The notes below the pieces were generated by a model. That model was not told where the DNA came from and did not search any database. It saw nothing but the letters and a program-made list of their open reading frames with translations. A stretch of DNA of 64,000 bases from a virus: positions 1-64,000 of the IMG/VR virus record IMGVR_UViG_3300042922_000542, one strand, 5' to 3'. The position numbers were made by a program, and so were the translations under genes. Below, piece by piece: positions 3,361 through 49,615 of the stretch (within the stretch, counting starts at the first letter, position 1; each line of letters begins with the position of its first letter).

Positions 3361-3376
3361 TATATCATACCTTTCT

Positions 3377-5290: not shown

Positions 5291-5360
5291 TAAAGGAACC
5301 TCCTTTATAAATATACTTTAATAAATACTTAAAAATTAGTAAAAGGGAGATGCAATAGTT

Positions 5361-9107: not shown

Positions 9108-9120
9108 ACTAATTAATATT

Positions 9121-9148
9121 ATAGATAGATCCAAATGGATCTATCTAT
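9121..9148 (+). terminator. rho-independent terminator-like hairpin
   Basis: atagatagatcc-aaat-ggatctatctat, a 12-bp perfect stem followed by aatattttta, just after the stop at 9107. Confidence 0.7.
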
Positions 9149-9219
9149 AATATTTTTATGTTTGTATATTATAACATAACATTATATGAAGCAATATTAT
9201 ATAAGGCGGTATTATAGAT

Positions 9220-10104
9220 ATGGATCGTAAATTAATTTTAGGAATAGATTATAATAATATAATGTTTGCAAGTTATTATAGTCCAGAAAAGATTAATAGT
9301 AAATTAATTAACACAAATGCAATTAATGGATTCTTCTTTAAATTAAAAAAACTGAAGGAATATGTTAATCCTGATTATATTGTAATATGTAATGATTTAG
9401 GACGGGAAAAAACATTCAGGAGAAAGATTTACCCAGGGTATAAAGCTAATAGGCAATCAACACCTTCATCGATAGGTGAACAATTTGCATATGGTTTACA
9501 GATTGCCCAGGCATTAGGATATCCAATTATAAATGATGATAATTATGAAGCAGATGATACACTAGGTATGATATCAAGATATGCTATAGATAATAATATG
9601 GATATGATTATAGCATCATCAGATAGAGACTATTTTCAATTAGTTACTGATGAAATTAATATATTTAATATGAAACATCAGGAATTAATCGATATTGAAT
9701 GGATTCAAAATAAATACGGACTAACACCCGATCAATTGATAGATTTAAAGGCACTAATTGGTGATAAATCGGACAATATCCCAGGGGCTAGAGGGATAGG
9801 TGAATATACAGGCCTAGAATTATTACAGACATGGGGTTCGATTGAAAAAATATATAAGAATTTAGAATGCATTAAACCCGCATTACGAAATAGACTTGAA
9901 CTTGATAAGAAGAATGTCGATATGAGTAAATTTTTAGGCACTATTATTACAGACTATAGTTTGATCGATATAAATATGAATAAGATTGAGCGTCAGCCAC
10001 AAGATACTAATCAACTACGAGATGTTATAAACTATTTAGAACTATATCAATTACATGATATTATGAAATATACATTGTTACACGATAAACTGATAACAGA
10101 ATAA
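9220..10104 (+). CDS. 5'-3' exonuclease / flap endonuclease (Pol I N-terminal domain family, PIN plus H3TH)
   Basis: Motifs FRRKIYPGYKANR, YEADDTLG and the H3TH signature GDKSDNIPGARGIGEYTGLELL. Confidence 0.9.
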   Translation: MDRKLILGIDYNNIMFASYYSPEKINSKLINTNAINGFFFKLKKLKEYVNPDYIVICNDLGREKTFRRKIYPGYKANRQSTPSSIGEQFAYGLQIAQALGYPIINDDNYEADDTLGMISRYAIDNNMDMIIASSDRDYFQLVTDEINIFNMKHQELIDIEWIQNKYGLTPDQLIDLKALIGDKSDNIPGARGIGEYTGLELLQTWGSIEKIYKNLECIKPALRNRLELDKKNVDMSKFLGTIITDYSLIDINMNKIERQPQDTNQLRDVINYLELYQLHDIMKYTLLHDKLITE

Positions 10105-10190
10105 TGTAATTTAGGTACCAATTCAAACATATCTGTTAATACATAAAATTTATAAATGTTAAAAAATATAAAATTGAGGAGATAGATAAT

Positions 10191-11180
10191 ATGGCTATAA
10201 TCGGATATACTGAAAACACTGACTTGACTTCTTTCAATGAATCAACTCTTTCAAAGAGTGAAACATTTAAATTATTTCAAGCCATCGGCGACCCAATAGA
10301 AAAAGCAAAAAACCTCATCAAAAATGCACGGGTTTTAACAAATGAAGATATTGAAACAGCGTATATTCAAGTTAAACAATATTCAAATTCATTAAGTAGA
10401 TCTGCTGTTAAAGCATACGATACCGGTTCCGTAGTTCTTTTATACACCGAGTTACCGTCACTTAGAATGAGTCAAGCATTTCCATTTATTACATTTAGGC
10501 ATAAAGATAAATATATCACATATATATTTATCGATAAATATATATCTAAAAGAAAAGATGGTGGATTGGATTTAAGCCCTGCGGTGTTACATGATTTATT
10601 AATAGGCGGAGTTATCGCCAATAAATTAAAAACTAATTATGATTCATTAGCAAGTAATCAATACCTACAAAAAATGTTAATGGAAATTTACACAAAATTC
10701 GTTACCCGTATTATTAATAAAGAATATGGAATCGGTGCAGATAAACAAATATCTGATTCAGCGCAATATTTTATAAATAGATTTTTCCTGGAAAAGATAT
10801 TTGAAACTAATGATGTGCCAGAAAACATTGAACGTCTTAGTATAAATAAATTAAAATATTTAGATGAAATGCTCATAAATGAAATAAAAATTAAATATGA
10901 AACTGCAAACCCATCATCATTTAGTGAATTATTGGAATTAGTTAAATCATTAAGTGTGAGGATGAATTCATTAACATTAAAATTATTTACAGATAAATGG
11001 ATTAATTATTATTACGCACCTGCAACATTAGCAATTGACAACATGGAATATTTAATATTCATGATAATTGCATTACTGCATGGAAATAATACGATTATAT
11101 CAATTAAAGCATCTGAAATAGTTAAGGAAACAAAAGGTATTAAAATGTTACAAGAAGAAATGCTGAAATTAATAAATTAA
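10191..11180 (+). CDS. hypothetical protein (329 aa)
   Basis: RBS GAGGAG 8 nt upstream. Long ORF with no recognised motif. Confidence 0.75.
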   Translation: MAIIGYTENTDLTSFNESTLSKSETFKLFQAIGDPIEKAKNLIKNARVLTNEDIETAYIQVKQYSNSLSRSAVKAYDTGSVVLLYTELPSLRMSQAFPFITFRHKDKYITYIFIDKYISKRKDGGLDLSPAVLHDLLIGGVIANKLKTNYDSLASNQYLQKMLMEIYTKFVTRIINKEYGIGADKQISDSAQYFINRFFLEKIFETNDVPENIERLSINKLKYLDEMLINEIKIKYETANPSSFSELLELVKSLSVRMNSLTLKLFTDKWINYYYAPATLAIDNMEYLIFMIIALLHGNNTIISIKASEIVKETKGIKMLQEEMLKLIN

Positions 11181-11243
11181 ATTTATATACTTATAGGAAC
11201 TATTAGATTAATTCAATAATAATATAAAAGGAGTGTTCAAACT

Positions 11244-11546
11244 ATGGCAGCAATTATAAAAAATGTAGTAATCGATGAATTTGAAATACCTGAGGAGTTA
11301 GCCAAAGAACTTAGCTCATTATTAACAGAATCTTCTATTAAGAAAGCATTGCTTGTGGAATTAGTTGAAGTGCCGGCTAAATATGATATCATTGAAAATG
11401 CAGTAATTATACTTGAAGATAAAATAACTGCATTAAAGAATATGATCACTAGAGAATATGTTCCAAATCATTACAGATCTTCTGAATATTCTTGGAACTA
11501 TGATGGTTATGCCACTGCAGGTCGCATTGTTCAAATTATGAAATAA
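11244..11546 (+). CDS. hypothetical protein (100 aa)
   Basis: RBS AAAGGAG upstream. The opposite-strand ORF 11237-11449 has no RBS. Confidence 0.7.
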   Translation: MAAIIKNVVIDEFEIPEELAKELSSLLTESSIKKALLVELVEVPAKYDIIENAVIILEDKITALKNMITREYVPNHYRSSEYSWNYDGYATAGRIVQIMK

Positions 11547-11561
11547 CATATACTAAAAATA

Positions 11562-11585
11562 ATGGGGGACAATCAAGTCCCCCAT
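11562..11585. terminator. bidirectional terminator hairpin between convergent genes
   Basis: atggggga-caatcaag-tcccccat with T-rich tracts on both sides. Confidence 0.75.
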
Positions 11586-11607
11586 TATTATTTATTTTTT
11601 TATTTTA

Positions 11608-11901
11608 TTAGCAATTGCATCCACGACTAGTACAAGAGCAGCCATCATTATCTTCAACTAATATCATTCCGCAGTTATTGACAAACGAAATATACAAATC
11701 CGATTTTTTATCAGATGTAGACGAAACGTAGCCCTTACTTAATTCTTGTCTTAATACACTTAGACGAGTTGTTATATCAACCCATTCATTCGTGAATGAT
11801 TCATGCACGCCAACAAATTGTTCAACCGCATTAGCACGCCCAATCAATTCTAGTGGCAATACATTTGTATCAATTAATTCATATTGAACTTTCTTAACCA
11901 T
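11608..11901 (-). CDS. small protein with C-terminal Cys motif (CSCTSRGCNC); candidate radical-SAM substrate
   Basis: RBS CAGGAG placed immediately after the stop of the upstream Cys-rich gene. It is the last gene of the operon before the terminator. Four of its five Cys lie in the last 10 residues. Confidence 0.7.
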   Translation of the reverse strand: MVKKVQYELIDTNVLPLELIGRANAVEQFVGVHESFTNEWVDITTRLSVLRQELSKGYVSSTSDKKSDLYISFVNNCGMILVEDNDGCSCTSRGCNC

Positions 11902-11915
11902 TATATTTCTCCTGA

Positions 11916-13181
11916 TTAATAATTTATTTTTCTGAATGATCTCTGTTGATCTTCTCGATTCATAGGTTGAGGATATCCAATTGTAGTCGGTTCTGTATGA
12001 TATGATTTCTCTGAAATATCTGCAGATGTATTAGATTGTAAATACGTTGTACAATGTCCTACGCATGTACTAATGCATTTATCAGTACAATTATTAAAAC
12101 AATCTCTATTACAACTTGAGTCACACCACCAACCACATAAATTGGCACAATTAGAACAAGTACCCTGACATTTAACTGAGCATAAACCAATACACATACC
12201 CACACATGAGTAGCAAAGATCACTACAACCACCACATGAGTCAGTGCAATTATCATAACAATGATTCACACATTTATTTACGCATGTTTGAGTACAATAA
12301 ATATTACATGCTTGGCCACATTGAACCGAACATTGACTTGAACAAGGTCCACAATTAAATCCACAATTGTTAGCGCATGTTCTACATAATGATGAACATG
12401 CATTTGAACATAGTGCTGTACATGATTTACCAACACAATTAACACTACATGTATTTACACATGCACCCTTACTTGCACCGCATGATGAACGACAAGCTTC
12501 TAGATGACAACTCGTGTTACAATCCTTTTGACATAGACCGGTACACGAACCACCGCAATTTCCACATCCCGTTGATCCAGGCGGTTTAGCATCCTCTTGG
12601 GATGATGCATGACCATCACATGTTGTACATATACCAGTGTTTGCATTACAATCACTTGCACAATTTGTACAACCGCCACCACCAGAACTAGTAGTTGCAC
12701 ATTCTTCTCTACACGATGTTCCACATCCTGTGCATGCACCACTACAACCACTACAACCATCTCCAGTACTAGTGCCGCTACATCCTCCACCACAGGTACC
12801 ACCGCATCCACCTTCACATCCATTTCCACAACTAGAGCTACACATAGAACAGTCACCTGAACAACTTCCAGGGCAACTAGTATCTCCAGGATCTGGTGCA
12901 GCAGATGACGATCCTTTACAAGTACCAGTACAACCACTACACCCTCCACTGCATCCATTAGAACATGATCCGGACCCAGCATTACAAGTATCTCTACACA
13001 TACCTTTACATGTTGTACCACAACTATCAGAACTACAACCTGCACCGCATCTAGATTGACAAGATGTTCCACAACTACCACATCCAGTACCAATACTCTT
13101 TGTTGCTGTGGTACTACTAGAACTACTAGCAGCATCTTTTGCTTGTTTTATAGCACCTATTATTCCTGACAATAAACTCAT
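11916..13181 (-). CDS. hyper-cysteine-rich protein (421 aa, 78 Cys by hand count, mostly Cx3C spacing)
   Basis: RBS AAGGTGA. A Cys-free 33-aa N-terminus is followed by three Cys/Gly/Ser/Thr blocks separated by short Pro/Asp linkers, then a Cys-free 44-aa tail. The frame is chosen by RBS and operon context among several open frames. Confidence 0.8.
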   Translation of the reverse strand: MSLLSGIIGAIKQAKDAASSSSSTTATKSIGTGCGSCGTSCQSRCGAGCSSDSCGTTCKGMCRDTCNAGSGSCSNGCSGGCSGCTGTCKGSSSAAPDPGDTSCPGSCSGDCSMCSSSCGNGCEGGCGGTCGGGCSGTSTGDGCSGCSGACTGCGTSCREECATTSSGGGGCTNCASDCNANTGICTTCDGHASSQEDAKPPGSTGCGNCGGSCTGLCQKDCNTSCHLEACRSSCGASKGACVNTCSVNCVGKSCTALCSNACSSLCRTCANNCGFNCGPCSSQCSVQCGQACNIYCTQTCVNKCVNHCYDNCTDSCGGCSDLCYSCVGMCIGLCSVKCQGTCSNCANLCGWWCDSSCNRDCFNNCTDKCISTCVGHCTTYLQSNTSADISEKSYHTEPTTIGYPQPMNREDQQRSFRKINY

Positions 13182-13214
13182 TTATCAATCACCTTCTTTA
13201 CACAATGATCTGTA

Positions 13215-14852
13215 TCAAACACGTATACCCGTATTTGCATTACAATCTATTTTACATGTAGCTGTACAAGCACTAGTACAACCAAAACACGTTCCAGTAC
13301 ATGTTAAATTACATGATCCAGTACAACCATCACAAGCTGTACACCCATTTGAACATCCAGTGTCACAGTTACCACAATTATTACTGCAGGTTACAGTACA
13401 ATTATCGTAGCAACTATTTTTACAAGTACTGAAACATGACAATGTACATACACCCTCACATACACCAGCACAATCACCTGTACAATCTGCAACACAACCC
13501 TCTTTACACGATTGACCCTTTCCAGATTTATAACCACCATTATGTTCATTATCATTACTAATGCATCCACCAAAACAACTAGTTGAACAATATGTATTAC
13601 AAGTTGTAAAACATAATGCTGAGCATACTGAATCCCAACATGTCGTTTTTTTATTAGGATAATATTGACATGAGAATGAACATCCACTGCATGTATACGT
13701 TGATGATATTACTGTATTTTGGATAACTGCACTTGAGGCTGTCTGTCCACAATTATTACTACATCCGCTAGGGTTACCTGTAGATTTAATAGAAACTGTA
13801 TCAGCTCCTGCATTCAAACAAGATTTACCACCAATATCACTACATTTGGTTTTACATCCAGAATAACATTGTGTCGTACATCCTGTACATATATTACCAC
13901 AATCTGAATGACATGCATTACCGCATCTGCTCCAACATGTGGATGCACAACCTTCGGAACATTGATTATCACATGTTAGATAACATAAACCTGTACATGC
14001 TACATTACACAATCCTTTAGATCCTGTTGAAATTTGTCTTGATGGATATTCTGATCCTCTATTAGGGTTTCTAGGATTAGCTCCAAATCTAGATGCTGAA
14101 CTAATGCCACCTGTCACTTGATCAACTACTGTTTCATTTCGTTGATCGTCCTGAGTAATTATATGACGATGAACAATCGGTGAAACATATGGGTTTATCG
14201 GATGATGATCAATAACACCAGGACTTGCTCCATAATCATCATAGAAGTTAGTCTCATCAGGACCACTATGACCTGGTAATATTTCTTCACCATCATATTC
14301 TCCAGATGGATATTCTACTGGAACTGTTACGGTTTTACCATTATTTGCAATAGGGTATAAACCATATCCTGTATACATACCATTCGTAACTCCATTATTA
14401 GGGTCATATTTCTGAAAAGATTCAGTAACGGGCACATTTAAAATATCATTTTCAGCAGCTTCTATTTTTGTTGATATATCTTCAGGATCTCTAAACACTA
14501 AACCCGCAACCTCATCTCTGCCATAGAATAAATCTATGTCATGGATCTTAGATAAACCAACTAAATAGTTTTGTATTTCATCAACATCAATTCTAGCACT
14601 AGATGAATTAATATCTCCAACAGGATTATCTCCTTGCGCAGGATATTTGATATTTCTTGTAGGTTCTATGGATCCGGTAGATGGAGTATTAATGGTATAT
14701 GTTTTATCTGTGACTTCACTAGTCCTATCAGCTCCGACTGCAGGTGTAGTTAACGGATCCCACCATTTAAATGTTCCACGACGTTTAATCTCAGCATTTA
14801 ATTTATCCTTAATTGCATCAAATTCTGTTTTTGAATATAATTTATCATTCAC
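13215..14852 (-). CDS. two-part protein: Cys-free N-terminal domain (about 280 aa) plus C-terminal Cx3C lattice (52 Cys)
   Basis: No ATG near the 5' end. The track starts at GTG 14870. I prefer GTG 14852 because GAGGTG lies 6 nt upstream. The first Cys is residue 288 of the track ORF (nt 14009). The protein ends in ...CKIDCNANTGIRV. Confidence 0.75.
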   Translation of the reverse strand: MNDKLYSKTEFDAIKDKLNAEIKRRGTFKWWDPLTTPAVGADRTSEVTDKTYTINTPSTGSIEPTRNIKYPAQGDNPVGDINSSSARIDVDEIQNYLVGLSKIHDIDLFYGRDEVAGLVFRDPEDISTKIEAAENDILNVPVTESFQKYDPNNGVTNGMYTGYGLYPIANNGKTVTVPVEYPSGEYDGEEILPGHSGPDETNFYDDYGASPGVIDHHPINPYVSPIVHRHIITQDDQRNETVVDQVTGGISSASRFGANPRNPNRGSEYPSRQISTGSKGLCNVACTGLCYLTCDNQCSEGCASTCWSRCGNACHSDCGNICTGCTTQCYSGCKTKCSDIGGKSCLNAGADTVSIKSTGNPSGCSNNCGQTASSAVIQNTVISSTYTCSGCSFSCQYYPNKKTTCWDSVCSALCFTTCNTYCSTSCFGGCISNDNEHNGGYKSGKGQSCKEGCVADCTGDCAGVCEGVCTLSCFSTCKNSCYDNCTVTCSNNCGNCDTGCSNGCTACDGCTGSCNLTCTGTCFGCTSACTATCKIDCNANTGIRV

Positions 14853-14915
14853 ACTTATCACCTCAATCACATTTATATTTGCATTTATTTAATTTTAAAG
14901 AGTCTGCAAATTCAA

Positions 14916-16727
14916 TTATTGGTTTTCCAATACGGTAATTGTAGAACGAGCCACTATCATTTTTAATAATTTTAACTCTTCCTCATTAATAACCATCAAT
15001 GCCCATTCGTCGGGTAATTGTAATTTTCTTACTCCCAAATTATAATGTGGTTTCTTTATAGCTAACAGGTTCCAGTAATATACATTGGCTAAGTGTTCGG
15101 CAAACATTTGTAAACATATGAATTGAGTTCTCTTATTTGCAGTCCCATATGTTTGATGGCATAACCCACTACACCAAGAGCAAGAAGATCCAATTGGACA
15201 ATCATAACAAATATCATTTGATTGTGAACGCCTTGTTACACTATCCATCATCGACAATATTTCGGATCCTTCTTCTCTACCAACCATACCAGTATCAATA
15301 TGACCTATACATTGCTCTTTGCATTTCGTTCCAAGTGATGATGGCATATATCTAATACATGGATAAAATTTACCCTTGTAGTCTAGTGCCAACATTGATC
15401 CTAATCCTCCACACCAATTTTGATCCGAAGTGTGTTTAAGCCTAGTCTCAGGTTTATCATCGAATATAGCAATATATAGATGCTCTAAATTATTTTCCAG
15501 CAAGTAGTTCGCTAGTTTCTTTAATTGTTCATATTCTAGTGTAGCAGTTTCTTGTGTCCAAACATCTTCAAACACGCAGTTTAAATTGATAGATTCCATA
15601 TCCTCATTGATGAAATTAATAACTGAATCATATAAATATTTCATATTTTCTGGAGCCAATGTCATCTTTGAATTTCTTTCGGTAGTATGATATTTATTAA
15701 AATGATTTAATGCAAGAATATCGATATCATACGAGCCTTCACCATTAGGCTGGATTCTACATGAGTCTTGTAATTCTTTATTACCATCTATTGATATATT
15801 AAATGAAACATGTTTAGCATATTTTTTAAAGAAATCTTGCACGTCTCTATCAAAATATAACATCCCATTGGTACATATAGAAATTCTATGCATTGCAAAC
15901 CATGGATGGTTTAATTCATAGCATCTTTCTAAAAAATATTCATAAATCTTTTTGGTAAGATTAATTTCTAACAATGGGTCCCCACCAATAAACTCAATGA
16001 TTATTGCAGGTGAATTGTGTTTATTAATATAACTATATTCATCATTTAAAAGTTTATCGATAAATGCTTTAGCTGTTGGAAATTTCATTCTTCCACATGT
16101 TTTATTTATCTGATAACAATATGTGCAGGATAAATTACAATCCTCAGTTGTTTGGAATGTAAAGTTGTGTACATATATTGATGTATCCTTATTAGTAGGA
16201 TCTACTGTATCTTGAGTAAACAATTCAGGGTAAACTTTTTGAATGGCATCACTATAACTTTCAACATTAAATCTAAAAAATTGATTTGGCATTATATTAA
16301 ATACTTCATCATCCTTTATTTTATCATCAATATAATTTAAACAATTTTCATCATCAGATAATATTATTACATCAAATCCAATCTCTTGATTTTTGAAATC
16401 AATATGTTTAACAATTACCTCAGATATATTATCAATATTATATGAGGAAACTCCAGATGATTCGATTATATCATTTAAGAATACTGCAACTATTTCACAG
16501 AATCCATAACGTACCTCGTCCAAGATACTAGTAAGTTTTTCATGTAATTCCGGGATTTTATCTAGATCCTTATTATGGTCATACATATAATTTATTCTAA
16601 ATGATATCGCATCAGCTTCATATCGTAACCTGGTTGTTTTATGATACCCGAATGTCTGCATTTCAAATATATCGAATTGCTGATTGTATAATTTAATTTT
16701 TTTATATAATGCATTTGTCTCTTTCAT
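14916..16727 (-). CDS. radical SAM / SPASM-domain enzyme with about 190-aa N-terminal extension (603 aa)
   Basis: RBS AGGAGG. CNLSCTYC (CxxxCxxC) at nt 16116-16139. C-terminal GKFYPC ... CYDCPIGSSCSWCSGLC auxiliary-cluster pattern typical of SPASM proteins. Confidence 0.85.
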   Translation of the reverse strand: MKETNALYKKIKLYNQQFDIFEMQTFGYHKTTRLRYEADAISFRINYMYDHNKDLDKIPELHEKLTSILDEVRYGFCEIVAVFLNDIIESSGVSSYNIDNISEVIVKHIDFKNQEIGFDVIILSDDENCLNYIDDKIKDDEVFNIMPNQFFRFNVESYSDAIQKVYPELFTQDTVDPTNKDTSIYVHNFTFQTTEDCNLSCTYCYQINKTCGRMKFPTAKAFIDKLLNDEYSYINKHNSPAIIIEFIGGDPLLEINLTKKIYEYFLERCYELNHPWFAMHRISICTNGMLYFDRDVQDFFKKYAKHVSFNISIDGNKELQDSCRIQPNGEGSYDIDILALNHFNKYHTTERNSKMTLAPENMKYLYDSVINFINEDMESINLNCVFEDVWTQETATLEYEQLKKLANYLLENNLEHLYIAIFDDKPETRLKHTSDQNWCGGLGSMLALDYKGKFYPCIRYMPSSLGTKCKEQCIGHIDTGMVGREEGSEILSMMDSVTRRSQSNDICYDCPIGSSCSWCSGLCHQTYGTANKRTQFICLQMFAEHLANVYYWNLLAIKKPHYNLGVRKLQLPDEWALMVINEEELKLLKMIVARSTITVLENQ

Positions 16728-16797
16728 TATAATACCTCCTGTTATATATTAACTTTATTTAGCTTAATTCTTAGTAATATTAAAATCATATAAAGAT

Positions 16798-16821
16798 AAT
16801 GGATGGGCAATCCCATCCATT
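16798..16821 (-). terminator. hairpin (terminator or attenuator) inside the radical-SAM cluster
   Basis: aatggatggg-caat-cccatccatt, between the stop at 16826 and the start at 16727. Confidence 0.55.
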
Positions 16822-16825
16822 ATCA

Positions 16826-17662
16826 CTATCTATTATTTGATATGTATTCTTGATATATCATGGATAGTTCTTGATCAACTTTATTCCGCTCAGTTAATTT
16901 TGTATCATCATATTTTTGCTCGGATAACAATTGACCATTACAGTCCTTCGTTGAAATTACATAATGTGAATTGACATTAACGGTATTAATATTCTCAATA
17001 GTGATTTCATTATCGATAAAATAATTATCATAGATTAATTGTTTCATAATACTCATATAATGATCTCTAATAATATTGAAATCATCACTGACAAATCCAA
17101 ATTCAATTCGTTTAAATCCAATAGAAACTAAATTATTGATACTTTCTTTAAGATATCCAATATTAGATTTATTTAAAGTACAATGTGCAATTAGGTTAAT
17201 CCCACTCTTTATGAATTTGCCTATATTGTCTATTATATAATCATATGATCCTTTCCCGTTTTTAAGTATACGATTAATATTGTGCGATAATTTATTACCA
17301 TCTATTGAAATACATAATAAAATATTATATTTTTTAATGGTATTAATAATTTCATCTGAATACATCATACCGTTAGTTGAAGTTACAAATTTAAATTTAT
17401 ATTCAGAATAATGATCAATAATATATTTACATATTTGATTTAGTCGATCTATAAATAAAAATGGTTCACCGCCTAATAATTCAACAGTAATCGACCTACC
17501 CGTAATATGCAACATACTTTCATCGAATATCCGAATTATATCATCTATGGTACTATCTGATTCAATATCACTATCAAGCATATTATTATATACATAACAA
17601 TATTTACATCTCATATTGCAGAGCTTAGTAATATACATATTTATATGTCGACATTCAGACAT
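16826..17662 (-). CDS. radical SAM enzyme, short form without SPASM tail (278 aa)
   Basis: CNMRCKYC at nt 17597-17620 and a GGEP motif (LLGGEPF). The start overlaps the upstream stop as TAATG, which implies translational coupling. Confidence 0.85.
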   Translation of the reverse strand: MSECRHINMYITKLCNMRCKYCYVYNNMLDSDIESDSTIDDIIRIFDESMLHITGRSITVELLGGEPFLFIDRLNQICKYIIDHYSEYKFKFVTSTNGMMYSDEIINTIKKYNILLCISIDGNKLSHNINRILKNGKGSYDYIIDNIGKFIKSGINLIAHCTLNKSNIGYLKESINNLVSIGFKRIEFGFVSDDFNIIRDHYMSIMKQLIYDNYFIDNEITIENINTVNVNSHYVISTKDCNGQLLSEQKYDDTKLTERNKVDQELSMIYQEYISNNR

Positions 17663-18783
17663 TAATCATCATCCTTCAAATTAAATTTAATACGAATATT
17701 GTCATATCCAATTTTATTAATAAACATTTCAGATGCATCATAAAAAAGTTTTATTGCTTTACATACACCATCTATGGGTTCACATATATTTTTCTTACCA
17801 TGTTCCATTATTGCTGCAAAACATTGACCATAGCATACGCCATATAATTCACAATTTCTACATTTTGGAGATATATCATGTGAAAAGTTTTTATATATAT
17901 TTGCAATATTATTGGTTTCATCAATATCAGTAAATATGGAACCAAGTTTAGTATGTTCAAAGCGGTTATTGAAAAAACGTTGACAAGGATATATGTCACC
18001 ATTGGGTGCTAATGCAATTGTAGATGAACCAGCTGAACAGAAGTAGGTTCTACCGTGGGCTTTACATCTATATGGTAATAGTAAGCCAGTATCAAGAAAT
18101 GGAGTTTCCGAGTAAAATTTATCAACTAGAAATTCTACATATTCAATATAAAAATTCTTTAATCTCTCCAATTGCACATCATTCCAATCGCAATCTCGGA
18201 CAATACTCAAATTAATACGCCTGAATCCATCTTTGATGTAATCTTTAATACCATCTAGGACATAATCAATATTATCAGGTGATATCATAAATTTAAATAT
18301 TTTAGAGCTGATTGGTCTGTTATTAGCTTCACAATATAGTGTAGCACCTTTTATACAGTCATCATAGCTACCTTTACCATTTGGATATACCCGACATCTA
18401 TCATGGCTGCTTCTCCCACCATCTAGGGACATACTAATCCCTATTTCATTATTCTTGAGATATTCAACCTTCTCTTTATTTAATAATGTCAAATTACTTG
18501 TAGTCATAATTGCAATATTTACATCTGGTCGCATTTTTTTTACTTCATTGATATTATCAACTATTTTACAGAATTTTTCCCATTCCATTATAGCCTCTCC
18601 ACCGAATAAATCAATATGAAGAGATTTTATATCATTTTTAACGATAATATTATTAAGAAATACGGGCAAATATTCAATAACATCATCCGATATTGTTAAC
18701 CCGTTTGTTTTATTAACATAGCAATATTTACAACGCAAATTGCATTTCTCAGTTACAATAATAATGATTGTACTAATTTTCAT
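17662..18783 (-). CDS. radical SAM / SPASM-domain enzyme (373 aa)
   Basis: CNLRCKYC at nt 18721-18744. The C-terminus reads CSAGSSTIALAPNGDIYPC ... CRNCELYGVCYGQC, the canonical Cx2Cx5Cx3C SPASM pattern. Confidence 0.9.
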   Translation of the reverse strand: MKISTIIIIVTEKCNLRCKYCYVNKTNGLTISDDVIEYLPVFLNNIIVKNDIKSLHIDLFGGEAIMEWEKFCKIVDNINEVKKMRPDVNIAIMTTSNLTLLNKEKVEYLKNNEIGISMSLDGGRSSHDRCRVYPNGKGSYDDCIKGATLYCEANNRPISSKIFKFMISPDNIDYVLDGIKDYIKDGFRRINLSIVRDCDWNDVQLERLKNFYIEYVEFLVDKFYSETPFLDTGLLLPYRCKAHGRTYFCSAGSSTIALAPNGDIYPCQRFFNNRFEHTKLGSIFTDIDETNNIANIYKNFSHDISPKCRNCELYGVCYGQCFAAIMEHGKKNICEPIDGVCKAIKLFYDASEMFINKIGYDNIRIKFNLKDDD

Positions 18784-18794
18784 TTTTTATACCT

Positions 18795-19184
18795 CTAATT
18801 ATCACCTATTACCAAACCACATTGATCACAATCACATGCACATCTATCACAATTGCAAGAACATCTATCGCAATCACAATCACAATTATCGCAATTACAT
18901 TGACATGTATTATTGTATATTGTCGTAGCAGCTATACTGGCATTATTAAAAACTGTAGCAAGTATATATTTGCCTTGTTCAAAATTTATCAATGAACTAA
19001 GATCTGCCTTGGGATATACCGCTGAATGACCATTTGCAGCAACTAAATTATTTTTAATTGATGTAAACAAAGTGCTAGTTATTAAATTACCTTTCACGGC
19101 TCTTTCTGTATTTGCAGGTTGACCAAGTCGTATTCGAGTTTGATCAACCGATGCAGCAACAACATTTGCATCATCCGCTAACAT
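18795..19184 (-). CDS. protein with C-terminal alternating Cys tail CQCNCDNCDCDCDRCSCNCDRCACDCDQC; candidate radical-SAM substrate
   Basis: The track ORF begins at GTG 19217. I prefer ATG 19184 (AAAGG 7 nt upstream). There are 13 Cys within 27 residues near the C-terminus. The stop lies 9 nt before the RBS of the next radical-SAM gene. Confidence 0.75.
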   Translation of the reverse strand: MLADDANVVAASVDQTRIRLGQPANTERAVKGNLITSTLFTSIKNNLVAANGHSAVYPKADLSSLINFEQGKYILATVFNNASIAATTIYNNTCQCNCDNCDCDCDRCSCNCDRCACDCDQCGLVIGDN

Positions 19185-19194
19185 TTTCTGACCT

Positions 19195-19518
19195 TTAACT
19201 ATTGCCAATGTTATCACCCACTTTTACAATAAAATCAATAGACTCATATAAAATATCACTGATTGAGAAGTGATATATATTCTTTACAATATTACTTATA
19301 GATTTAACGATGGTACCATTTACCAATACCTGAACTGATTTTACTGGTTTATCCCTAAAATATTGATTTAAAACTGTACCTGTTGTTGGAACAACATCAT
19401 TTATGATACGTAATTGAGTTAATTCACTCCCAACATTCATAAAAAAATTTATCCCCGCAGTTTTATCAATTATAACATCTTCATCAATATATTCAATTTT
19501 TATTTTTACACCTTCCAT
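19195..19518 (-). CDS. hypothetical small protein (107 aa) within the radical-SAM cluster
   Basis: RBS AGGAGGG. No Cys motif. Function unknown. Confidence 0.7.
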   Translation of the reverse strand: MEGVKIKIEYIDEDVIIDKTAGINFFMNVGSELTQLRIINDVVPTTGTVLNQYFRDKPVKSVQVLVNGTIVKSISNIVKNIYHFSISDILYESIDFIVKVGDNIGNS

Positions 19519-19549
19519 AATTTAACCCTCCTGTTTATAATAATTAATC

Positions 19550-19951
19550 TTATTCATAATTAAAATGGAGTTCGGAATTAGATAAATATATTCGATCTAT
19601 TATTATATCATCCATAATATTTATACCATATGAGATACTCTTTACGCCTAATATTTCATCACATATTTCATCTCCATTAAACATTTGAACATTGATTACT
19701 TTTCGATCCATCAATGCTTGACGAATTATATCAAATTTTTCATGAAAGTCGTTAACTGTGACATTTCTAATGATTAATGCATTTGATATCATTTTGCTTA
19801 AACTATTTGCCACTGTGAGACTATCATCTCGGTATCGTACGGCCGATACTACCGGGGATTGAGGTAGGGATGTTGGATCTATATTAATATTAGGCACCAC
19901 ATCTAATGTCATCGTCACCATTGGTTCGATTATTATTTTTACACGTGTCAT
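19550..19951 (-). CDS. hypothetical small protein (about 133 aa) within the radical-SAM cluster
   Basis: The track start is 19972. Met8 at 19951 has AAAGGGG about 10 nt upstream. It overlaps the 3' end of the upstream radical-SAM gene by about 62 nt. Confidence 0.6.
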   Translation of the reverse strand: MTRVKIIIEPMVTMTLDVVPNINIDPTSLPQSPVVSAVRYRDDSLTVANSLSKMISNALIIRNVTVNDFHEKFDIIRQALMDRKVINVQMFNGDEICDEILGVKSISYGINIMDDIIIDRIYLSNSELHFNYE

Positions 19952-21224
19952 TGCATGAACACCCCTTTTCATTTATCATACGAGAAACTTTTTCTGTTAT
20001 TAATAATTCATGTAATTCTAATAAATGTTGTAGCGTTATTATTTGACCTTCCGTAAAATTATCAGTTAGAAGTCTACCCATTTCTTGCAAAACTGTAATT
20101 GAGACTTCGTGATCTCTATGAATTTTACCAAATAGTCGTTCATATACATAAATCGATAATTCCATTTCAACCTCTAATAATTTACAATACTTAGGAAAAC
20201 CATATGCGATATTTCCATTTTCTATATAATTAATAGCCATACAGCTCTTGCAGTTATAATTCTTACATTCAGAACATGCCTTGTATCCAGTCATATATTT
20301 TTTATACATCTCTTCATATGGTGCACATTTTAATGTATTTATACCATTAAATACATCACCAATTATAGTATCTGGGTCATTCATGAATGCATGGCATGGA
20401 TATATATAACCATCTGGAGCTACAGTGCAAAATGATACACCCGCACCGCATGTTTTATCGGCATGTCGCTCTTTATATACCATTGATGAAAATTGTTTAT
20501 AATTCCCTCCACTATTTTCACAATCCTCAATGATTGCATTGGCAATATGGGTATATTGCTCTCTAAATATAACATAATCATTTTCATCCCAATTCTCTTC
20601 ATGAAGAGGCATAAACCATATCTTATCAAATCTTAAGATATTTTTAAAGAAGATGTATGACTCATGTGCATATGGTAATGTTGCTTTGGTTATAACACTA
20701 TGCACTGATAATTTATTAGATGGAATGTCTAATTTATCAAATAATGCTCTAAGTTTTTTTATCGTCTCTATTATATTATGAGATGAACCATTACCCGCAT
20801 GATCAATTCTTTGCAGATCATTAATCCTAGGAATTGAATCAAATGATAATTGAATTGAAAAACTTTCAGGATTATTTACCCACCAATTGGTTAGAAATTG
20901 TTCGTATTCATTATTGTATAATACACCATTTGTTATCAATTCACTATTATATTTCAAACCATGTTTTTTACATTGATCCATAGCATAATTGAATATGTGG
21001 TTCATAGTATTTATATTGAGTGTAGGCTCCCCTCCAAAATATGACACACTAATACTTGTTTTATTATTAACTAAAGCATCATGGATAAGTAAATCAATTG
21101 TTTTTTCACCAATCTCATTACTCATAAATTTACCCTTTGATGAATTATTTTTTTCAAAACAATATTTACAATTAAGATTACATGTGTCTGTTAATAGTAT
21201 CGATGCACTCGTAAATGATGACAT
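19890..21224 (-). CDS. radical SAM / SPASM-like enzyme (444 aa)
   Basis: RBS AGGAGG. CNLNCKYC at nt 21159-21182. CGAGVSFCTVAPDGYIYPC ... CSECKNYNCKSC, plus a C-terminal helical extension ending in GCSCNDTC. Confidence 0.85.
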   Translation of the reverse strand: MSSFTSASILLTDTCNLNCKYCFEKNNSSKGKFMSNEIGEKTIDLLIHDALVNNKTSISVSYFGGEPTLNINTMNHIFNYAMDQCKKHGLKYNSELITNGVLYNNEYEQFLTNWWVNNPESFSIQLSFDSIPRINDLQRIDHAGNGSSHNIIETIKKLRALFDKLDIPSNKLSVHSVITKATLPYAHESYIFFKNILRFDKIWFMPLHEENWDENDYVIFREQYTHIANAIIEDCENSGGNYKQFSSMVYKERHADKTCGAGVSFCTVAPDGYIYPCHAFMNDPDTIIGDVFNGINTLKCAPYEEMYKKYMTGYKACSECKNYNCKSCMAINYIENGNIAYGFPKYCKLLEVEMELSIYVYERLFGKIHRDHEVSITVLQEMGRLLTDNFTEGQIITLQHLLELHELLITEKVSRMINEKGCSCNDTCKNNNRTNGDDDIRCGA

Positions 21225-21286
21225 TTATTACGCCTCCTGATAATTATAGAAATTAATATTGTATGTTGTTTAAGATTCCTATATTT

Positions 21287-21319
21287 AAATAGTTAATCCG
21301 ATTGTCGGATTAACTATTT
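21287..21319 (-). terminator. terminator hairpin overlapping the tail-fibre stop codon
   Basis: aaatagttaatccg-attgt-cggattaactattt, a 14-bp perfect stem. Confidence 0.65.
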
Positions 21320-23634
21320 AAAATTAATATTTTTACTCTTTGAATATCTTCCGTATCTTTATTCTCTAATGCCTTACCTATTATAGATCCTGGAATACTT
21401 GATACTGAACTTTTTCCAACGCCTTTGATAGACGATGTTGTTATTAAATCTCCAGCTTTAACCTTGCCGGTAATATATGCAGATACTCTTCCTGTTAATC
21501 CTATAGGTATATTTCTTTCTAAGTTTTCCTCAGTGGTATATCCTTCTTCCAAACCTAATAAATATCCATATGTATCAGATACTACACCAACAACCAATGT
21601 CGAATATTCACCAGTGCTTTTTCGATAATTACCAGTTTCTGGATTTAATTCTATAATATCGCCAGGTTTAAAATCTTCAGACATATCATCCTTTTTAAAT
21701 AACTCGGCAACGTCACCCCATACTGCATTCTGAACTAAAGAGCCTGTTATGGTACCGGTAACTGTTAAATTACCAGTGATCGTTCCGCCAGTGAGTGGTA
21801 AATATGGATGGGTGTGTCCATTATCAGATTTATTATTCCATGCTGCTATTTGAGCATCTGTTACAAATCTATTAGTAGTATTTTGAGTTATAATCGATGC
21901 TGGGTGGCTCGCAGGATGTTGATATGAATATGGAGCGAGTTTAGATGCCAAAGCTTGTAGTTGTTCCACCGTGGATCTACTACTAATAGAATCGATTATA
22001 GTTGCAAATGATACATCAGTTGGTGCTGCAGCAGCACTAGTCATATTTCCTTTAATAGAAAATGCAGGTATATCTGCTAATTTTATATTCGTTACAGCTT
22101 TATCTCGTATTTTTGTAGTTAATATAGATAAATCTGCAATATTATAATCAGTTACAGCATTCATTTGAATTTTATGATTATTTACACAACCCTCACCCAA
22201 TTCATCGGAAGTTATAGTAAATGCAGCAATCTTTATACCAGTAACAGCCCTATCTGCAATAGCTGGCGTTTTAACGGACCCTTGCAATATATGATAATCG
22301 CGTATTGCATTACCAGCTATCTTTGAAGCAATGATCGTCCCATCTAATAAGTGATTATACATTACATTATTATCAGCTATATGTTCGGCAAGAATTGCAC
22401 CTGCTTTAATATCAACACTGTCCGCAACGGCTTTGTATGCTAAGTTTTGTAATCCTGTAACGTGTATTTCATCAACTACCGTACTGACATCACCATTTAT
22501 CATGTATGATATAGAACCATTATTTGAACCAGATCCTATCTCTATAGATTGTATAAATCTGCCATCAGCTTCAGCTTTACTGTATACATCTGTAGCCTGT
22601 GGTAGTGCTGCCACATTTATTGATAGACCGTTAGGTGTTTCAGAAAAATAAGTTGCATCATATTTTGATATTGTGAAATCCTGTATATCCCACCAATAAT
22701 TATCACCATCATGTTTACATGCAGCAATTGCACTATAATTAGAATTTTCTTTATTTTTAATCAGATATATATGTCTTTGTAATAATGGCGATGCCATCGG
22801 TAAATCTGAAACTTTATTTACAATATCAATAAATTCAACGTAGTCAGTTAAATCAGGTCCAACTATGGTATCAACATATGATGTCACGAAGTCAACTACT
22901 GCTTTAGATGATGGATATTTAACATCATCATAGTTTGTAGTATGTGATATAGTCACTGATTTGTTAGCAATATTTTCTTTAGCTGCAAATAATGGTCCAT
23001 GTGAAAATGGATTTGTCAAATGTGTTGTATAATCATTTAATAAATTAACCATTCTGGCATCTAGTAAATCAATACTATCGTTTAATTCAGTTTGTACATT
23101 AGATAATGCATTACGTATATCACTATGTGCTGTATTGCTAGTATCATGAATACCAATAATATTATTAATTGTATTTGAAACACTACCATCCGAATCTAAT
23201 TGATCTATTGTAACGTTGTGAGGATTATTAAAATTTGCAAGATGTGCGGTTAATGATGATAGGTCTATATTAAAATTATAATTTTCTAATATCGACATTA
23301 CTGCATTTCTCTGATTATATGATAATGGCTTCTCCAAATCAGATGTATTGTTAACCCGACCGAGTCCTATATCTTCAGATGTAATATTAATATCGCCGTA
23401 CATCCCATTTACAGATGTTACTGGGAATGTAATATATCCAATACCACCTTCTTTTATTTCTTCACGTATATCATCTAGTATTTGACGTAATGTTATTTCG
23501 TTCGCATCCTGTTGGTCATATATAGCATCTAATACACTTCTAGGCCAAATTATATCGGCCATACTAGTACTCGGATTATTCTCATCATCAAATACAATTT
23601 GATCGCGGATAACTTTATTCCTAATATTATTCAT
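21310..23634 (-). CDS. tail fibre protein with probable C-terminal intramolecular-chaperone / autoproteolytic domain
   Basis: I prefer Met9 (AGGAGG 9 nt upstream). It has NNPHNVTIDQL, reiterated A(V/I)TxxKIAxxxI repeats and GGTITGNLTVTGTITG. The C-terminal segment (VVGVVSD...GLTGRVSAYITGKVKAGDLITTS) resembles the Peptidase_G2/IMC type as I remember it. Confidence 0.75.
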   Translation of the reverse strand: MNNIRNKVIRDQIVFDDENNPSTSMADIIWPRSVLDAIYDQQDANEITLRQILDDIREEIKEGGIGYITFPVTSVNGMYGDINITSEDIGLGRVNNTSDLEKPLSYNQRNAVMSILENYNFNIDLSSLTAHLANFNNPHNVTIDQLDSDGSVSNTINNIIGIHDTSNTAHSDIRNALSNVQTELNDSIDLLDARMVNLLNDYTTHLTNPFSHGPLFAAKENIANKSVTISHTTNYDDVKYPSSKAVVDFVTSYVDTIVGPDLTDYVEFIDIVNKVSDLPMASPLLQRHIYLIKNKENSNYSAIAACKHDGDNYWWDIQDFTISKYDATYFSETPNGLSINVAALPQATDVYSKAEADGRFIQSIEIGSGSNNGSISYMINGDVSTVVDEIHVTGLQNLAYKAVADSVDIKAGAILAEHIADNNVMYNHLLDGTIIASKIAGNAIRDYHILQGSVKTPAIADRAVTGIKIAAFTITSDELGEGCVNNHKIQMNAVTDYNIADLSILTTKIRDKAVTNIKLADIPAFSIKGNMTSAAAAPTDVSFATIIDSISSRSTVEQLQALASKLAPYSYQHPASHPASIITQNTTNRFVTDAQIAAWNNKSDNGHTHPYLPLTGGTITGNLTVTGTITGSLVQNAVWGDVAELFKKDDMSEDFKPGDIIELNPETGNYRKSTGEYSTLVVGVVSDTYGYLLGLEEGYTTEENLERNIPIGLTGRVSAYITGKVKAGDLITTSSIKGVGKSSVSSIPGSIIGKALENKDTEDIQRVKILILNS

Positions 23635-23776
23635 TGTTATCATCCTCCTATATGTCATAAAATATAATTATTACTCTAATTTATATTAAACAAATGGTTT
23701 GAGTGCTGATGAAGAAAAGCAAAAAAATGAATTATTTAGATTATATATTATTCTATAAATATACCATAAAATCATA

Positions 23777-23785
23777 TGGTATAAT
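23777..23785 (+). promoter_or_regulatory. extended -10 element TGgTATAAT (host sigma-70/sigma-A type)
   Basis: catatGGTATAATaaat lies 22 nt upstream of the ATG at 23808. No convincing -35. In an AT-rich genome this could arise by chance. Confidence 0.35.
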
Positions 23786-23807
23786 AAATAAAATGGAGGC
23801 ATCGCAG

Positions 23808-24179
23808 ATGAAAATATCAATTAAACGAGTATCACTTGAAAATAATATGGATGTTATAAACTATATAACTAAAGGTATGAGACCATCCAAAGAAGATTTC
23901 AATACAATGATAGGTAAAATACAGGCTGTAGATCCAAATCGAAATGTATTTAATACGAGTCTTAGTGTTGAAGAGTTAAAATTAATTTATGAGAATAAAA
24001 AAGAAAATGAGAATCGTGCAGCAATATTTGGATTATTACTAGCGTCGATGGCATTTTTATTTGGTGTTAAAAAGGGAAAAGAGGTTGGGTTTGAAGAATG
24101 CCGAGAACAATATGATGAAAGGGTAAACGATGCACTCGATTCGGCGGGACTTGGTAGAATAACGATTAAAACATTCTAA
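23808..24179 (+). CDS. hypothetical protein with one C-terminal transmembrane segment
   Basis: The track ORF starts at GTG 23703. GGAGG lies 8 nt upstream of ATG 23808. The hydrophobic stretch is AAIFGLLLASMAFLFGV. Confidence 0.65.
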   Translation: MKISIKRVSLENNMDVINYITKGMRPSKEDFNTMIGKIQAVDPNRNVFNTSLSVEELKLIYENKKENENRAAIFGLLLASMAFLFGVKKGKEVGFEECREQYDERVNDALDSAGLGRITIKTF

Positions 24180-49472: not shown

Positions 49473-49545
49473 AAAGTAATTAACTCCTTTCTGTATTATA
49501 TAATACGGTTTTATAATTGCGTTACTGCTATAAATGAAGTTATAT

Positions 49546-49571
49546 GTGATAGAGGGAATTCCCTCTATCAC
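49546..49571 (-). terminator. terminator hairpin upstream of the RNAP gene
   Basis: gtgatagaggg-aatt-ccctctatcac. It lies inside the track's N-terminal extension of the RNAP ORF, which supports the later start. Confidence 0.6.
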
Positions 49572-49615
49572 ATACACCTTATTTTGTTCTAGGAGGAACA
49601 TTTATGTCAGCAAAT

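Follow-up and report, generated by a model that had tools for sequence, protein, structure and literature searches.

Two adjacent radical-SAM cassettes with presumed cysteine-repeat substrates in the tail-fibre gene region of a phiKZ-like gut phage

Among the closest described relatives of the locus reported here are enzymes that modify cysteine (Cys) residues. PapB and SCIFF substrates are peptides of ~45-50 amino acids (aa) with 6 Cys and defined acceptors, such as the Cx3D motif of PapB, and QhpD is a radical-SAM/SPASM enzyme that cross-links Cys to Asp or Glu carbons in a protein subunit before that subunit leaves the cytoplasm. A third system, named for targets with CXXX repeats, is curated as the enzyme families TIGR04115 and TIGR04119 and the target family PF27846. 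Among phages, the Aeromonas phage vB_AerVM_332-Vera (Chimalliviridae) carries eight radical-SAM genes in a structural cluster with five tail-fibre genes, an arrangement called "highly unusual" in its 2025 description, in the text of which the word cysteine is absent (PMC12390700). Here we analysed positions 1 to 64,000 of the IMG/VR virus record IMGVR_UViG_3300042922_000542 (64,000 nucleotides, hereafter the window), where a block inside the tail-fibre gene region of a phiKZ-like jumbo gut phage holds two units of enzyme plus substrate, with four radical-SAM enzymes (rSAM1 to rSAM4) and three proteins dominated by Cys repeats. Our preferred reading, to which we give a probability of roughly 55%, is that these are two cassettes of the type that makes RiPPs (peptides synthesized by the ribosome and modified after translation), scaled to whole proteins and stapling tail-associated products through thioethers.

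All genes from 23658 to 11608 in the list of open reading frames (ORFs) lie on the minus strand, and from 5' to 3' the block reads rSAM1, h140a, h107, Cys140, rSAM2, rSAM3, a hairpin, rSAM4, Cys551, Cys421 and p97. It consists of two distinct adjacent cassettes, A (21224-16826) and B (16727-11608), because a terminator-like hairpin at 16795-16824 (13-bp stem, 6 of its pairs GC, and a minus-strand tail rich in T) splits it. A first-pass annotation of the window, made from the letters alone, had placed four radical-SAM ORFs and the Cys ORFs on this strand downstream of a tail-fibre gene, and all of them are present. It had also proposed bracketing hairpins, which we find at 21284-21322 (a terminator-like 18-bp stem separating rSAM1 from the tail-fibre gene, with AGGAGG and the ATG of rSAM1 coming next) and at 11558-11589 (13-bp stem, 6 GC pairs, T tails on both strands, thus a bidirectional terminator-like element at the convergent end of the block), but the third, dividing hairpin had been overlooked. 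The proposed one-to-one interleaving of enzymes and Cys proteins gives way to a different order, in which an enzyme, two other small proteins, a substrate and two enzymes are followed by the hairpin, the fourth enzyme, two substrates and one more small protein. The TAATG overlap of rSAM2 and rSAM3 and the AGGAGG-type ribosome-binding sites before each Cys-ORF start were both found.

Cassette B opens with rSAM4 (14916-16727, minus strand; 603 aa), a probable radical-SAM/SPASM maturase of the CXXX-repeat target family. It matches TIGR04115 ("radical SAM peptide maturase, CXXX-repeat target family") at 344.4 bits, over profile positions 3-359 of 359. On the same profile its 60%-identical orthologue at the homologous phage locus L001 scores 352.7 bits, a member from a Bacilli metagenome-assembled genome (MAG) 418 bits and a Prevotella member 634 bits. 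The name that JGI gives to exactly rSAM4 is "radical SAM peptide maturase (CXXX-repeat target family)", and NCBI gives the CXXX-repeat-target name to an rSAM4 orthologue on a 153-kb contig binned with Lachnospiraceae. By these profile matches, cassette B appears to belong to, or to sit at the edge of, the curated CXXX-repeat family. The view that no equivalent had been described is therefore lost, since TIGR04115, TIGR04119 and PF27846 are curated and JGI already counts rSAM4 among the members.

The AlphaFold2 (AF2) model of rSAM4 (predicted local distance difference test, pLDDT, 82.5; predicted template modelling score, pTM, 0.83) has CteB (5WHY) as its first Foldseek match (E 2.8e-15), followed by anSME, ChlB, SuiB and SkfB, and CteB is also the top PDB sequence match. 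Residues 1-185 form a well-predicted additional domain that is conserved in phage orthologues and missing from the cellular enzymes of 411-445 aa. The best matches align over ~400 columns and the CteB sequence match starts near residue 169, so this phage-specific N-terminal domain appears unmatched; no recognisable RiPP recognition element was matched for it by Foldseek. Many rSAM4 orthologues (P0148, P0156, P0160, P0167, P0182, P0234 and others) are 745-958 aa long and contain Hint, intein-splicing and LAGLIDADG Pfam domains, so that the rSAM4 gene is a frequent intein host.

Directly downstream of rSAM4 lie its presumed substrate Cys551 (13215-14870, minus strand) and Cys421 (11916-13181, minus strand), and these adjacent proteins are built largely of CXXX tetrapeptide repeats, as the targets of the CXXX-repeat system are. 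The Cys counts of the first-pass annotation were exact, with 13 in the 140-aa protein of cassette A (129 aa in the JGI gene call), 52 in the 551-aa and 78 in the 421-aa protein; the spacing of the Cys, which is the key feature, had not been stated. Consecutive Cys are four residues apart (C-x3-C) in 39 of the 51 gaps of Cys551 (76%) and in 54 of the 77 gaps of Cys421 (70%). In Cys551 a conserved 287-aa N-terminal domain precedes the repeat region, with all 52 Cys within aa 288-543. The Cys content of the repeat proteins is 10-19%, with small polar spacers, and the composition C-[S/G/T]-[G/S/T/N]-[S/T/G/N] is alike in phage targets and Bacteroidales targets.

At E<=1e-3, 129 clusters of 90% identity are homologous to Cys551, and their contigs reach 297 kb. 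The 120 homologues listed all have E<=5e-109 and most measure 750-900 aa; an identical protein is encoded on a 246,147-bp JGI contig. PF27846 (printed "tSAM_targ_Cxxx_rpt") is precomputed on all but one of the 120, as faint matches. In an alignment of 59 homologues (mean column identity 33%) no Cys column varies, and many non-Cys positions inside the repeats are conserved as well. When compared with the 72%-identical orthologue at a second homologous phage locus, L003, the Cys region of Cys551 has a nonsynonymous proportion (pN) of 0.158 and a synonymous proportion (pS) of 0.728, with pN/pS ~0.22, and Cys421 has a pN of 0.287 and a pS of 0.703, a pS of ~0.70 being saturated in these comparisons. 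These patterns show that the Cys-rich ORFs are genuine genes under purifying selection. Most relatives have a single fused protein of ~890 aa, to the first two thirds of which Cys551 aligns, while the C-terminal half of Cys421 is homologous to its second CXXX block, the one following the Cys551-like part. The split into Cys551 and Cys421, with its own ribosome-binding site, recurs in L003; it thus characterises a lineage and is no sequencing error. Phage CXXX targets carry 52-94 Cys, with up to ~90 in one polypeptide.

The AF2 model of Cys551 is confident only in the N-terminal domain, and the Cys region has a pLDDT of 26-49 despite the 59-sequence alignment; this failure in spite of an informative alignment fits a structure that depends on modification or on a ligand or cofactor. 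No match with an E value under 0.6 came from Foldseek searches of the model in PDB and BFVD, and scans of Cys551, Cys421, Cys140, p97, h140a and h107 with Pfam, NCBIfam and PHROG identified no families. Pfam also gave none for the 889-aa homologue and for the bacterial and SPN3US targets, with a Pfam copy that apparently lacks PF27846. A tblastn search of Cys551 against phage records had no match, with the Cys region partly masked by the low-complexity filter, and megablast of positions 9000-24000 against 50,697 phage records had none either.

Cassette B closes with p97 (11608-11901, minus strand; 97 aa), which had been taken for a fourth Cys protein from its CSCTSRGCNC tail. The positional counterparts, 95 aa in L003 (49% identity) and 92 aa in L001 (23%), both lack this tail, and p97 therefore looks like a conserved small accessory protein and not a Cys substrate. 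We also considered whether the C-terminal domain of the 889-aa proteins might have become detached as p97, but dropped this reading, as BLASTP gave no significant similarity. The same was true of BLASTP comparisons among h140a, h107, p97, the L007 and L001 counterparts, the 889-aa C-terminal domain, SPN3US gp165 and the rSAM4 N-terminal domain.

Upon examining the four enzymes together, we found the predicted CxxxCxxC motifs at Cys15 of rSAM1 (19890-21224, minus strand; 444 aa), Cys14 of rSAM2 (17662-18783, minus strand; 373 aa), Cys15 of rSAM3 (16826-17662, minus strand; 278 aa) and Cys197 of the ORF at 14916-16727 (rSAM4). The enzymes are mutually 23-29% identical, and in the profile search suggested by the first-pass annotation all four exceed the PF04055 gathering cutoff of 29.5 bits (30.2-60.2 bits; rSAM1 38.6, rSAM2 41.2, rSAM3 60.2). 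Of the three SPASM-like ends it had reported, the pattern G-x4-C followed by Cx2Cx5Cx2-3C is present in rSAM1, rSAM2 and rSAM4, but only rSAM2 (25.7 bits) passes the cutoff of Pfam SPASM (PF13186, 21.5 bits). In rSAM1 the domain stays below it at 16.8 bits, yet the Cx2Cx5Cx2C motif is there, and rSAM4, with no Pfam SPASM match, has the motif, a full-length TIGR04115 alignment and a fold that matches CteB and anSME. The Pfam scan found no SPASM domain in rSAM3, which is translationally coupled to rSAM2.

The curated NCBIfam cutoffs are 350 bits for TIGR04115, 150 for TIGR04119, 340 for NF047865 (PapB), 425 for TIGR03974 (SCIFF), 349 for TIGR03942 (anSME) and 453 for TIGR03906 (QhpD). On NF047865 the scores are 183 bits for both rSAM1 and rSAM2, 149 for rSAM4 and 119 for rSAM3, all below the cutoff, and Cys140 contains a single C-x3-D by hand count, so that the pattern of the PapB family is not found. 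SCIFF scores of 72-142 bits are likewise below the cutoff, with no SCIFF-like peptide in the window, and anSME scores are 52-92 bits, with no sulfatase among the window ORFs scanned. The second maturase of the CXXX-repeat system, TIGR04119, gives only a weak partial match, at rSAM1 aa 209-365 (61.5 bits). The best NCBIfam matches of the enzymes are thus PapB, SCIFF and the CXXX-repeat family and the best structure is CteB, which bears out the earlier assignment to radical-SAM/SPASM maturases of the thioether-forming clade and leaves the Cys-rich proteins as the most plausible substrates.

Cassette A is a separate and rarer system, in which the PapB-like rSAM1 (also SCIFF-like) and rSAM2 and the SPASM-less rSAM3 occur with Cys140 (18795-19217, minus strand), the presumed substrate, just upstream of rSAM2. 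In Cys140 an N-terminal domain of ~100 aa leads into four CxCxCxx heptads, which span aa 105-133 and hold 13 Cys. With a HMMER profile search its family comprises 153 representative clusters at the E<=1e-3 level, 45 of them also at E<=1e-10, whereas a word-indexed search found only two distant relatives. All eight relatives inspected have the ~100-aa N-terminal domain and then [CxC(D/N)C(D/N)x]n. By eye, the relatives P0261, P0262 and P0266 carry a C-terminal extension of ~300 aa that opens with a Hint/intein-like motif, e.g. "CIAPGTLVMT"; such a motif after the heptads would point to self-processing where the Cys tract ends.

Between rSAM1 and Cys140 lie two small proteins for which Pfam, NCBIfam and PHROG give no family matches, h140a (19550-19972, minus strand) and the Cys-free h107 (19195-19518, minus strand). 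The listed start of h140a overlaps the 3' end of rSAM1 by 83 nucleotides (19890-19972), and the true start is uncertain, Met8 being one candidate. A Cys140 homologue occurs in like order at locus L007, where two small ORFs, the Cys protein and a radical-SAM gene are followed by a tail-fibre-like gene; the counterpart of h107 there has 111 aa, and the protein at the h140a position is of similar size, without similarity to h140a in BLASTP. Cassette A is an insertion specific to the window phage, as the 72-77%-identical relative L003 is without it, and scans of viral contigs with rSAM1 and rSAM2 found no close relatives. Seen by eye, both substrate families open with a helix of the form phi-x-x-phi-(K/N)-x-x-phi-N-x-x-x-x-R-(R/K)-x-G, for example FDAIKDKLNAEIKRRG in Cys551, FTSLKNLINTEITRR in MT835573 and VLTQINKARNKYG in P0257. 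This shared N-terminal helix could be an enzyme recognition element.

The genomic setting is that of a tail module. Directly upstream of the cassettes is a gene for a 782-aa tail-fibre protein (21310-23658, minus strand), which matches phrog_892 ("tail fiber protein", E 1.8e-13) and eight further tail-category families and has a weak match to a Peptidase_G2/IMC autoproteolysis domain; the morphogenesis context asserted earlier is thus upheld by PHROG. For cassette B we inspected the homologous loci L001/L002 (duplicates of each other) and L003. Their common core consists of an upstream gene of 582-648 aa, a radical-SAM gene (605 aa), one or more CXXX proteins and a protein of ~95 aa, so that the order of enzyme, CXXX protein and small protein is kept, which answers the call of the first-pass annotation for a synteny comparison. 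The upstream gene (648 aa in L001, 582 aa in L003) fills the tail-fibre position and has no significant family match. MT835573, a fecal phage contig unrelated to these, carries genes for a CXXX protein of 193 aa and for a radical-SAM protein 37% identical to rSAM4, which sit between an Ig-domain structural/tail protein and tail-fibre and tail genes. Counting all loci, the tail-module location recurs in at least five independent contexts, and enzyme and target are neighbours at each of the phage and bacterial loci that we inspected. In L001 a further Radical_SAM gene (21621-22670, minus strand; 379 aa, cut by the end of the locus) follows a 1456-aa protein ~9 kb beyond the CXXX cassette, and multiple radical-SAM genes may be common in this jumbo-phage clade.

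Cultured phages carry related modules. With tblastn, rSAM4 matches "radical SAM superfamily proteins" of SPN3US, CR5 and many Erwinia phages at 23-25% identity. In SPN3US, CR5 and pEa_SNUABM_29, a radical-SAM pair has directly upstream of it two ORFs in tandem that encode 130-147 aa and 20-21 Cys with a period of 4, at 3130-3522 and 3533-3937 of the SPN3US locus (L004; about 143828-144220 and 143413-143817 of the NC_027402 complement), 5154-5546 and 5516-5959 of the CR5 locus (L008) and 5100-5492 and 5502-5903 of the pEa_SNUABM_29 locus (L009). The order in all three is virion structural protein, two CXXX ORFs, radical-SAM pair and tail assembly chaperone. RefSeq and GenBank leave the tandem CXXX stretches unannotated or give them ORFs in another frame or strand, such as SPN3US gp100/SPN3US_0166. 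The N-terminal 57 residues of the SPN3US CXXX protein recur in 70 phage records, namely 34 from Erwinia, 32 from Salmonella, 2 from Escherichia, 1 from Proteus and 1 from Enterobacteria phages, and in many of them nothing is annotated beneath the match. The top NCBIfam match of SPN3US gp163 is TIGR04115 (126 bits), and its top match in the window is rSAM4. A relation between the Cys551 family and SPN3US gp167 was rejected, as hhalign detected none, and literature searches for SPN3US gp163-167 or for a function of the SPN3US radical-SAM proteins returned nothing.

Two other phage loci were seen beside these. The radical-SAM neighbourhood of Campylobacter phage CP220 (L023) shows no adjacent Cys-repeat ORF; the hypothetical protein gp032 (14821-15008), ~7 kb from the radical-SAM gene, begins a CxxC repeat run (CKNCINCSNCKNCFDCEDCINCSNC) that the end of the L023 locus cuts off. 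In the human fecal phage MT835472 (L024, a 91-kb contig), a 47-aa SCIFF-like peptide (GGCGECQTSCQSACKTSC, 6492-6635) lies directly upstream of a radical-SAM gene (7001-7969), and phages therefore also carry ordinary small RiPP pairs.

In cellular genomes, an alignment-based GTDB scan located TIGR04115-type genes in MAGs of Bacteroidales, Prevotella and Tannerellaceae; scanning genome contigs with the single rSAM4 sequence gave nothing. The bacterial targets at such loci (L011-L018) have 170-246 aa and 24-42 Cys, their ORFs ending at ~7940, just upstream of the radical-SAM gene at ~8001. They open with a twin-arginine (Tat) signal (SRREFFKK), then a lipobox Cys and then an acidic stretch, which suggests that they are Tat-exported lipoproteins, possibly exposed at the surface. 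The Prevotella locus L018 also carries TIGR04119 (237 bits), and Firmicute-type contigs have CXXX peptides of 28-64 aa. Phage targets are two- to four-fold larger than the bacterial ones, with the conserved 287-aa domain in place of the export signal; as Bacteroidales targets reach 246 aa, large target size is a matter of degree.

Drawing this together, we propose that rSAM4 of cassette B would act on Cys551 and Cys421 as the two halves of the ~890-aa protein of most relatives, each substrate being bound through its N-terminal helix or domain. It would work in the cytoplasm of the host, where it would abstract hydrogen atoms and join Cys sulfur to carbons of neighbouring residues, giving thioethers of the sactionine or ranthionine type, and this would be iterated along the repeat tract. 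A tract unable to fold by itself would become a densely stapled module that reductants cannot open, and the product might be a component or accessory of the tail or tail fibre that survives outside the cell, including the reducing gut, where disulfides are unreliable. We infer the pairing of enzyme and substrate, a probable thioether chemistry and a probable tail-associated role. The thioethers are suggested by the characterised relatives CteB, PapB and QhpD, and the extracellular or tail role by the tail-gene synteny together with the Tat/lipoprotein export of the bacterial homologues. Protein-scale Cys modification is still the best reading of the locus.

Several points weigh against this proposal. 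The chemistry is extrapolated from relatives that are only 20-25% identical, and the CXXX-repeat system itself is known by comparative genomics, with no experiment on enzyme or target found in the searchable literature. rSAM4 falls 5.6 bits short of the curated TIGR04115 cutoff, and apart from the weak match of rSAM1 no TIGR04119 partner is present in the window, nor in the gene lists of L001 and L003. An acceptor residue comparable to the Asp in PapB substrates is not conserved in the CXXX units, so C-alpha (sactionine-type) or varied side-chain links are more plausible than a PapB-like Cys-Asp rule. The putative virion association is drawn from synteny with tail genes; PHROG, Pfam, PDB and BFVD give no match for Cys551, Cys421 or Cys140, and neither structure nor profile searches connect the N-terminal domain of Cys551 with virion proteins that are known. 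The genes flanking the block include the non-structural FEN exonuclease, DHFR and ThyA. Finally, extreme Cys density and bacterial Tat signals are equally typical of metal- or cofactor-binding proteins.

This last point leads to the main rival, that the Cys-repeat proteins are metal or Fe-S binders akin to metallothioneins or poly-ferredoxins and that the radical-SAM enzymes load or assemble a cofactor or modify non-Cys residues. The high Cys content with small polar spacers, the metallothionein-like CxC runs of Cys140, the lack of an AF2 fold when no ligand is supplied and the Tat route of the Bacteroidales homologues, which is typical of cofactor-loaded proteins, would all be expected if it were correct. 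However, Pfam and NCBIfam gave no match to a metallothionein, Fe-S, ferredoxin or other metal-binding family at E<=0.01, and a strict C-x3-C period is, to our knowledge, no cluster-binding motif. The adjacent enzyme also falls in the peptide-maturase clade, whose characterised members CteB, PapB, anSME and QhpD modify Cys-containing peptides, and it co-occurs with the target at every inspected phage and bacterial locus, and hence we regard metal binding as rather unlikely.

Alternatively, the modified Cys proteins could act inside the infected cell, in redox or thiol buffering, in anti-defence, or as a chaperone or scaffold of tail-fibre assembly that is not retained. Sequence inspection shows no secretion signal on the phage substrates, which would keep them cytoplasmic until lysis, and the SPN3US/CR5 module is close to a "tail assembly chaperone" gene. 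We hold such a role to be unlikely, since the bacterial module is exported to the cell envelope, so that a modified CXXX tract seems suited to an extracytoplasmic milieu, and since Pfam, NCBIfam and PHROG have no match to a defence or anti-defence family (PADLOC was not searched).

It is more doubtful that the cassettes make released RiPP-like bioactives (a bacteriocin, a signal, or a toxin against host or competitor) which lysis would set free and which have no connection with the virion. This reading is favoured by enzyme families that are typical RiPP maturases, by substrates in which a repeat "core" comes after an N-terminal part, by the small RiPP pairs on phage contigs such as MT835472 and by the 28-64-aa CXXX peptides at Firmicute-type loci. 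The substrates here, however, are 140-890 aa long, their N-terminal domains are globular and conserved, relatives have C-terminal domains as well, and neither a leader protease nor a transporter or immunity gene was found in the block by the Pfam, NCBIfam and PHROG scans, nor was a secretion signal. The cassettes are repeatedly found in tail modules and not in moron positions. Furthermore, the rSAM4 gene is conserved across the jumbo-phage clade and often hosts inteins, which are typically located in core genes. That the Cys-rich ORFs are chance ORFs or read in the wrong frame, as competing 140-211-aa ORFs in different frames of 12500-13135 and the GC of 0.39 there against ~0.30 elsewhere might hint, is ruled out by conservation and substitution pattern, namely more than 120 homologues with Cys columns invariant in this frame, a pN of 0.16-0.29 against a pS of ~0.70, and a ribosome-binding site ahead of each start.

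The window phage is a phiKZ-like jumbo phage by its marker genes. These include a multisubunit RNA polymerase beta homologue (46671-49601, minus strand; phrog_2986 and phrog_2962) and the virion structural families PHROG 21400, 21032 and 20751, with structural genes at 541-5290, 10191-11180 and 37376-40471. An anaerobic host does not follow from radical-SAM genes by themselves, since phages of Salmonella, Erwinia amylovora and Aeromonas also carry homologous modules. The argument of the first-pass annotation from oxygen-sensitive enzymes thus fails, but its conclusion survives on other grounds, an anaerobic gut host being likely from the ~30% GC, the gut origin, NrdD beside the L003 cassette and the orthologue binned with a Lachnospiraceae MAG. 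Overall, that annotation was largely correct, and right about the enzyme class and the probable Cys modification of large proteins.

Elsewhere in the window, the gene at 5361-9107 (plus strand) encodes a 1248-aa protein with tail-fibre-like N-terminal motifs, weak tail-fibre PHROG matches only and ~20 repeats "YYS.DG..W"; the repeats resemble a BNR/Asp-box propeller by eye, and the product may be a glycan-binding receptor-binding protein. The 774-aa product of 41755-44079 (plus strand) has mixed PHROG matches, to the large terminase (aa 91-443), to a UvsX-like recombinase (aa 438-660) and to a DnaC-like loader. A 2055-aa ORF at 57782-63949 (minus strand) has no PHROG match at E<=1e-3, and no tRNA genes were found in the window.

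The CXXX-repeat family is curated, with no published chemistry or biological role found, and the window locus shows this system at its largest scale. What appears new is the setting in phages and their tail modules, the size of the targets as whole proteins, conservation across more than 100 protein clusters from gut jumbo phages, the additional N-terminal domain of the enzyme, the heptad cassette and the unannotated substrates in cultured jumbo phages. Tentatively, one may ask whether phage radical-SAM enzymes staple whole tail or virion-surface proteins into lattices of poly-thioether or other Cys-derived links, with 20-90 cross-links each, and whether this is widespread in phiKZ-like jumbo phages, those of gut anaerobes as well as Salmonella phage SPN3US; we see it as a possibility with the odds against it, and the lack of annotation of the substrate genes would explain why such a virion modification had escaped notice. 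If true, this would be a new class of virion post-translational modification, made by enzymes that act iteratively on long repeat proteins and that are of interest for protein stapling. As SPN3US-like phages of Salmonella, Erwinia and E. coli can be grown, mutated and studied by proteomics and cryo-EM, both the chemistry and the virion question are directly testable.

When compared with the known systems, the window differs from each in a distinct manner. QhpD/QhpC is approached through TIGR03906, which is among the top matches of rSAM1, rSAM2 and rSAM4, with scores of 85-115 bits against the cutoff of 453; QhpC has few cross-links and is part of a redox enzyme, being neither a repeat protein nor viral, unlike the phage targets. 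PapB (freyrasin, ranthipeptides) is the best NCBIfam match of rSAM1 and rSAM2 and shares with them an adjacent multi-Cys repeat substrate, and CteB (SCIFF, PDB 5WGG/5WHY), the best structural and PDB-sequence match of rSAM4, likewise has a multi-Cys substrate next door. The scores are far below both family cutoffs (183 vs 340 bits for PapB; 72-142 vs 425 bits for SCIFF), and the phage targets have tens of Cys and no conserved acceptor in comparison with the PapB and SCIFF substrates. The CXXX-repeat system (TIGR04115/TIGR04119/PF27846) is alike in its whole-profile match, adjacent target, Cys at mostly every fourth residue and same spacers. The phage version differs from it in the extra conserved 185-aa N-terminal domain of the enzyme, the lack of a TIGR04119 partner, targets of 421-551 aa (~890 aa when fused) with 52-94 Cys as against 28-246 aa in cells, a 287-aa N-terminal domain in the place of a Tat/lipoprotein signal, and its setting in a phage tail module. 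That setting is shared with the SPN3US-like phages (Seoulvirus, Derbicusvirus; gp163/gp164), which combine structural or fibre genes and CXXX proteins with a SPASM-less radical-SAM protein and a radical-SAM/SPASM enzyme, whereas their enzymes are 23-25% identical to those of the window and their targets are two tandem proteins of 130-147 aa. It is also shared with 332-Vera, in which a battery of radical-SAM genes likewise occupies the tail module of a phiKZ-like phage (PMC12390700).

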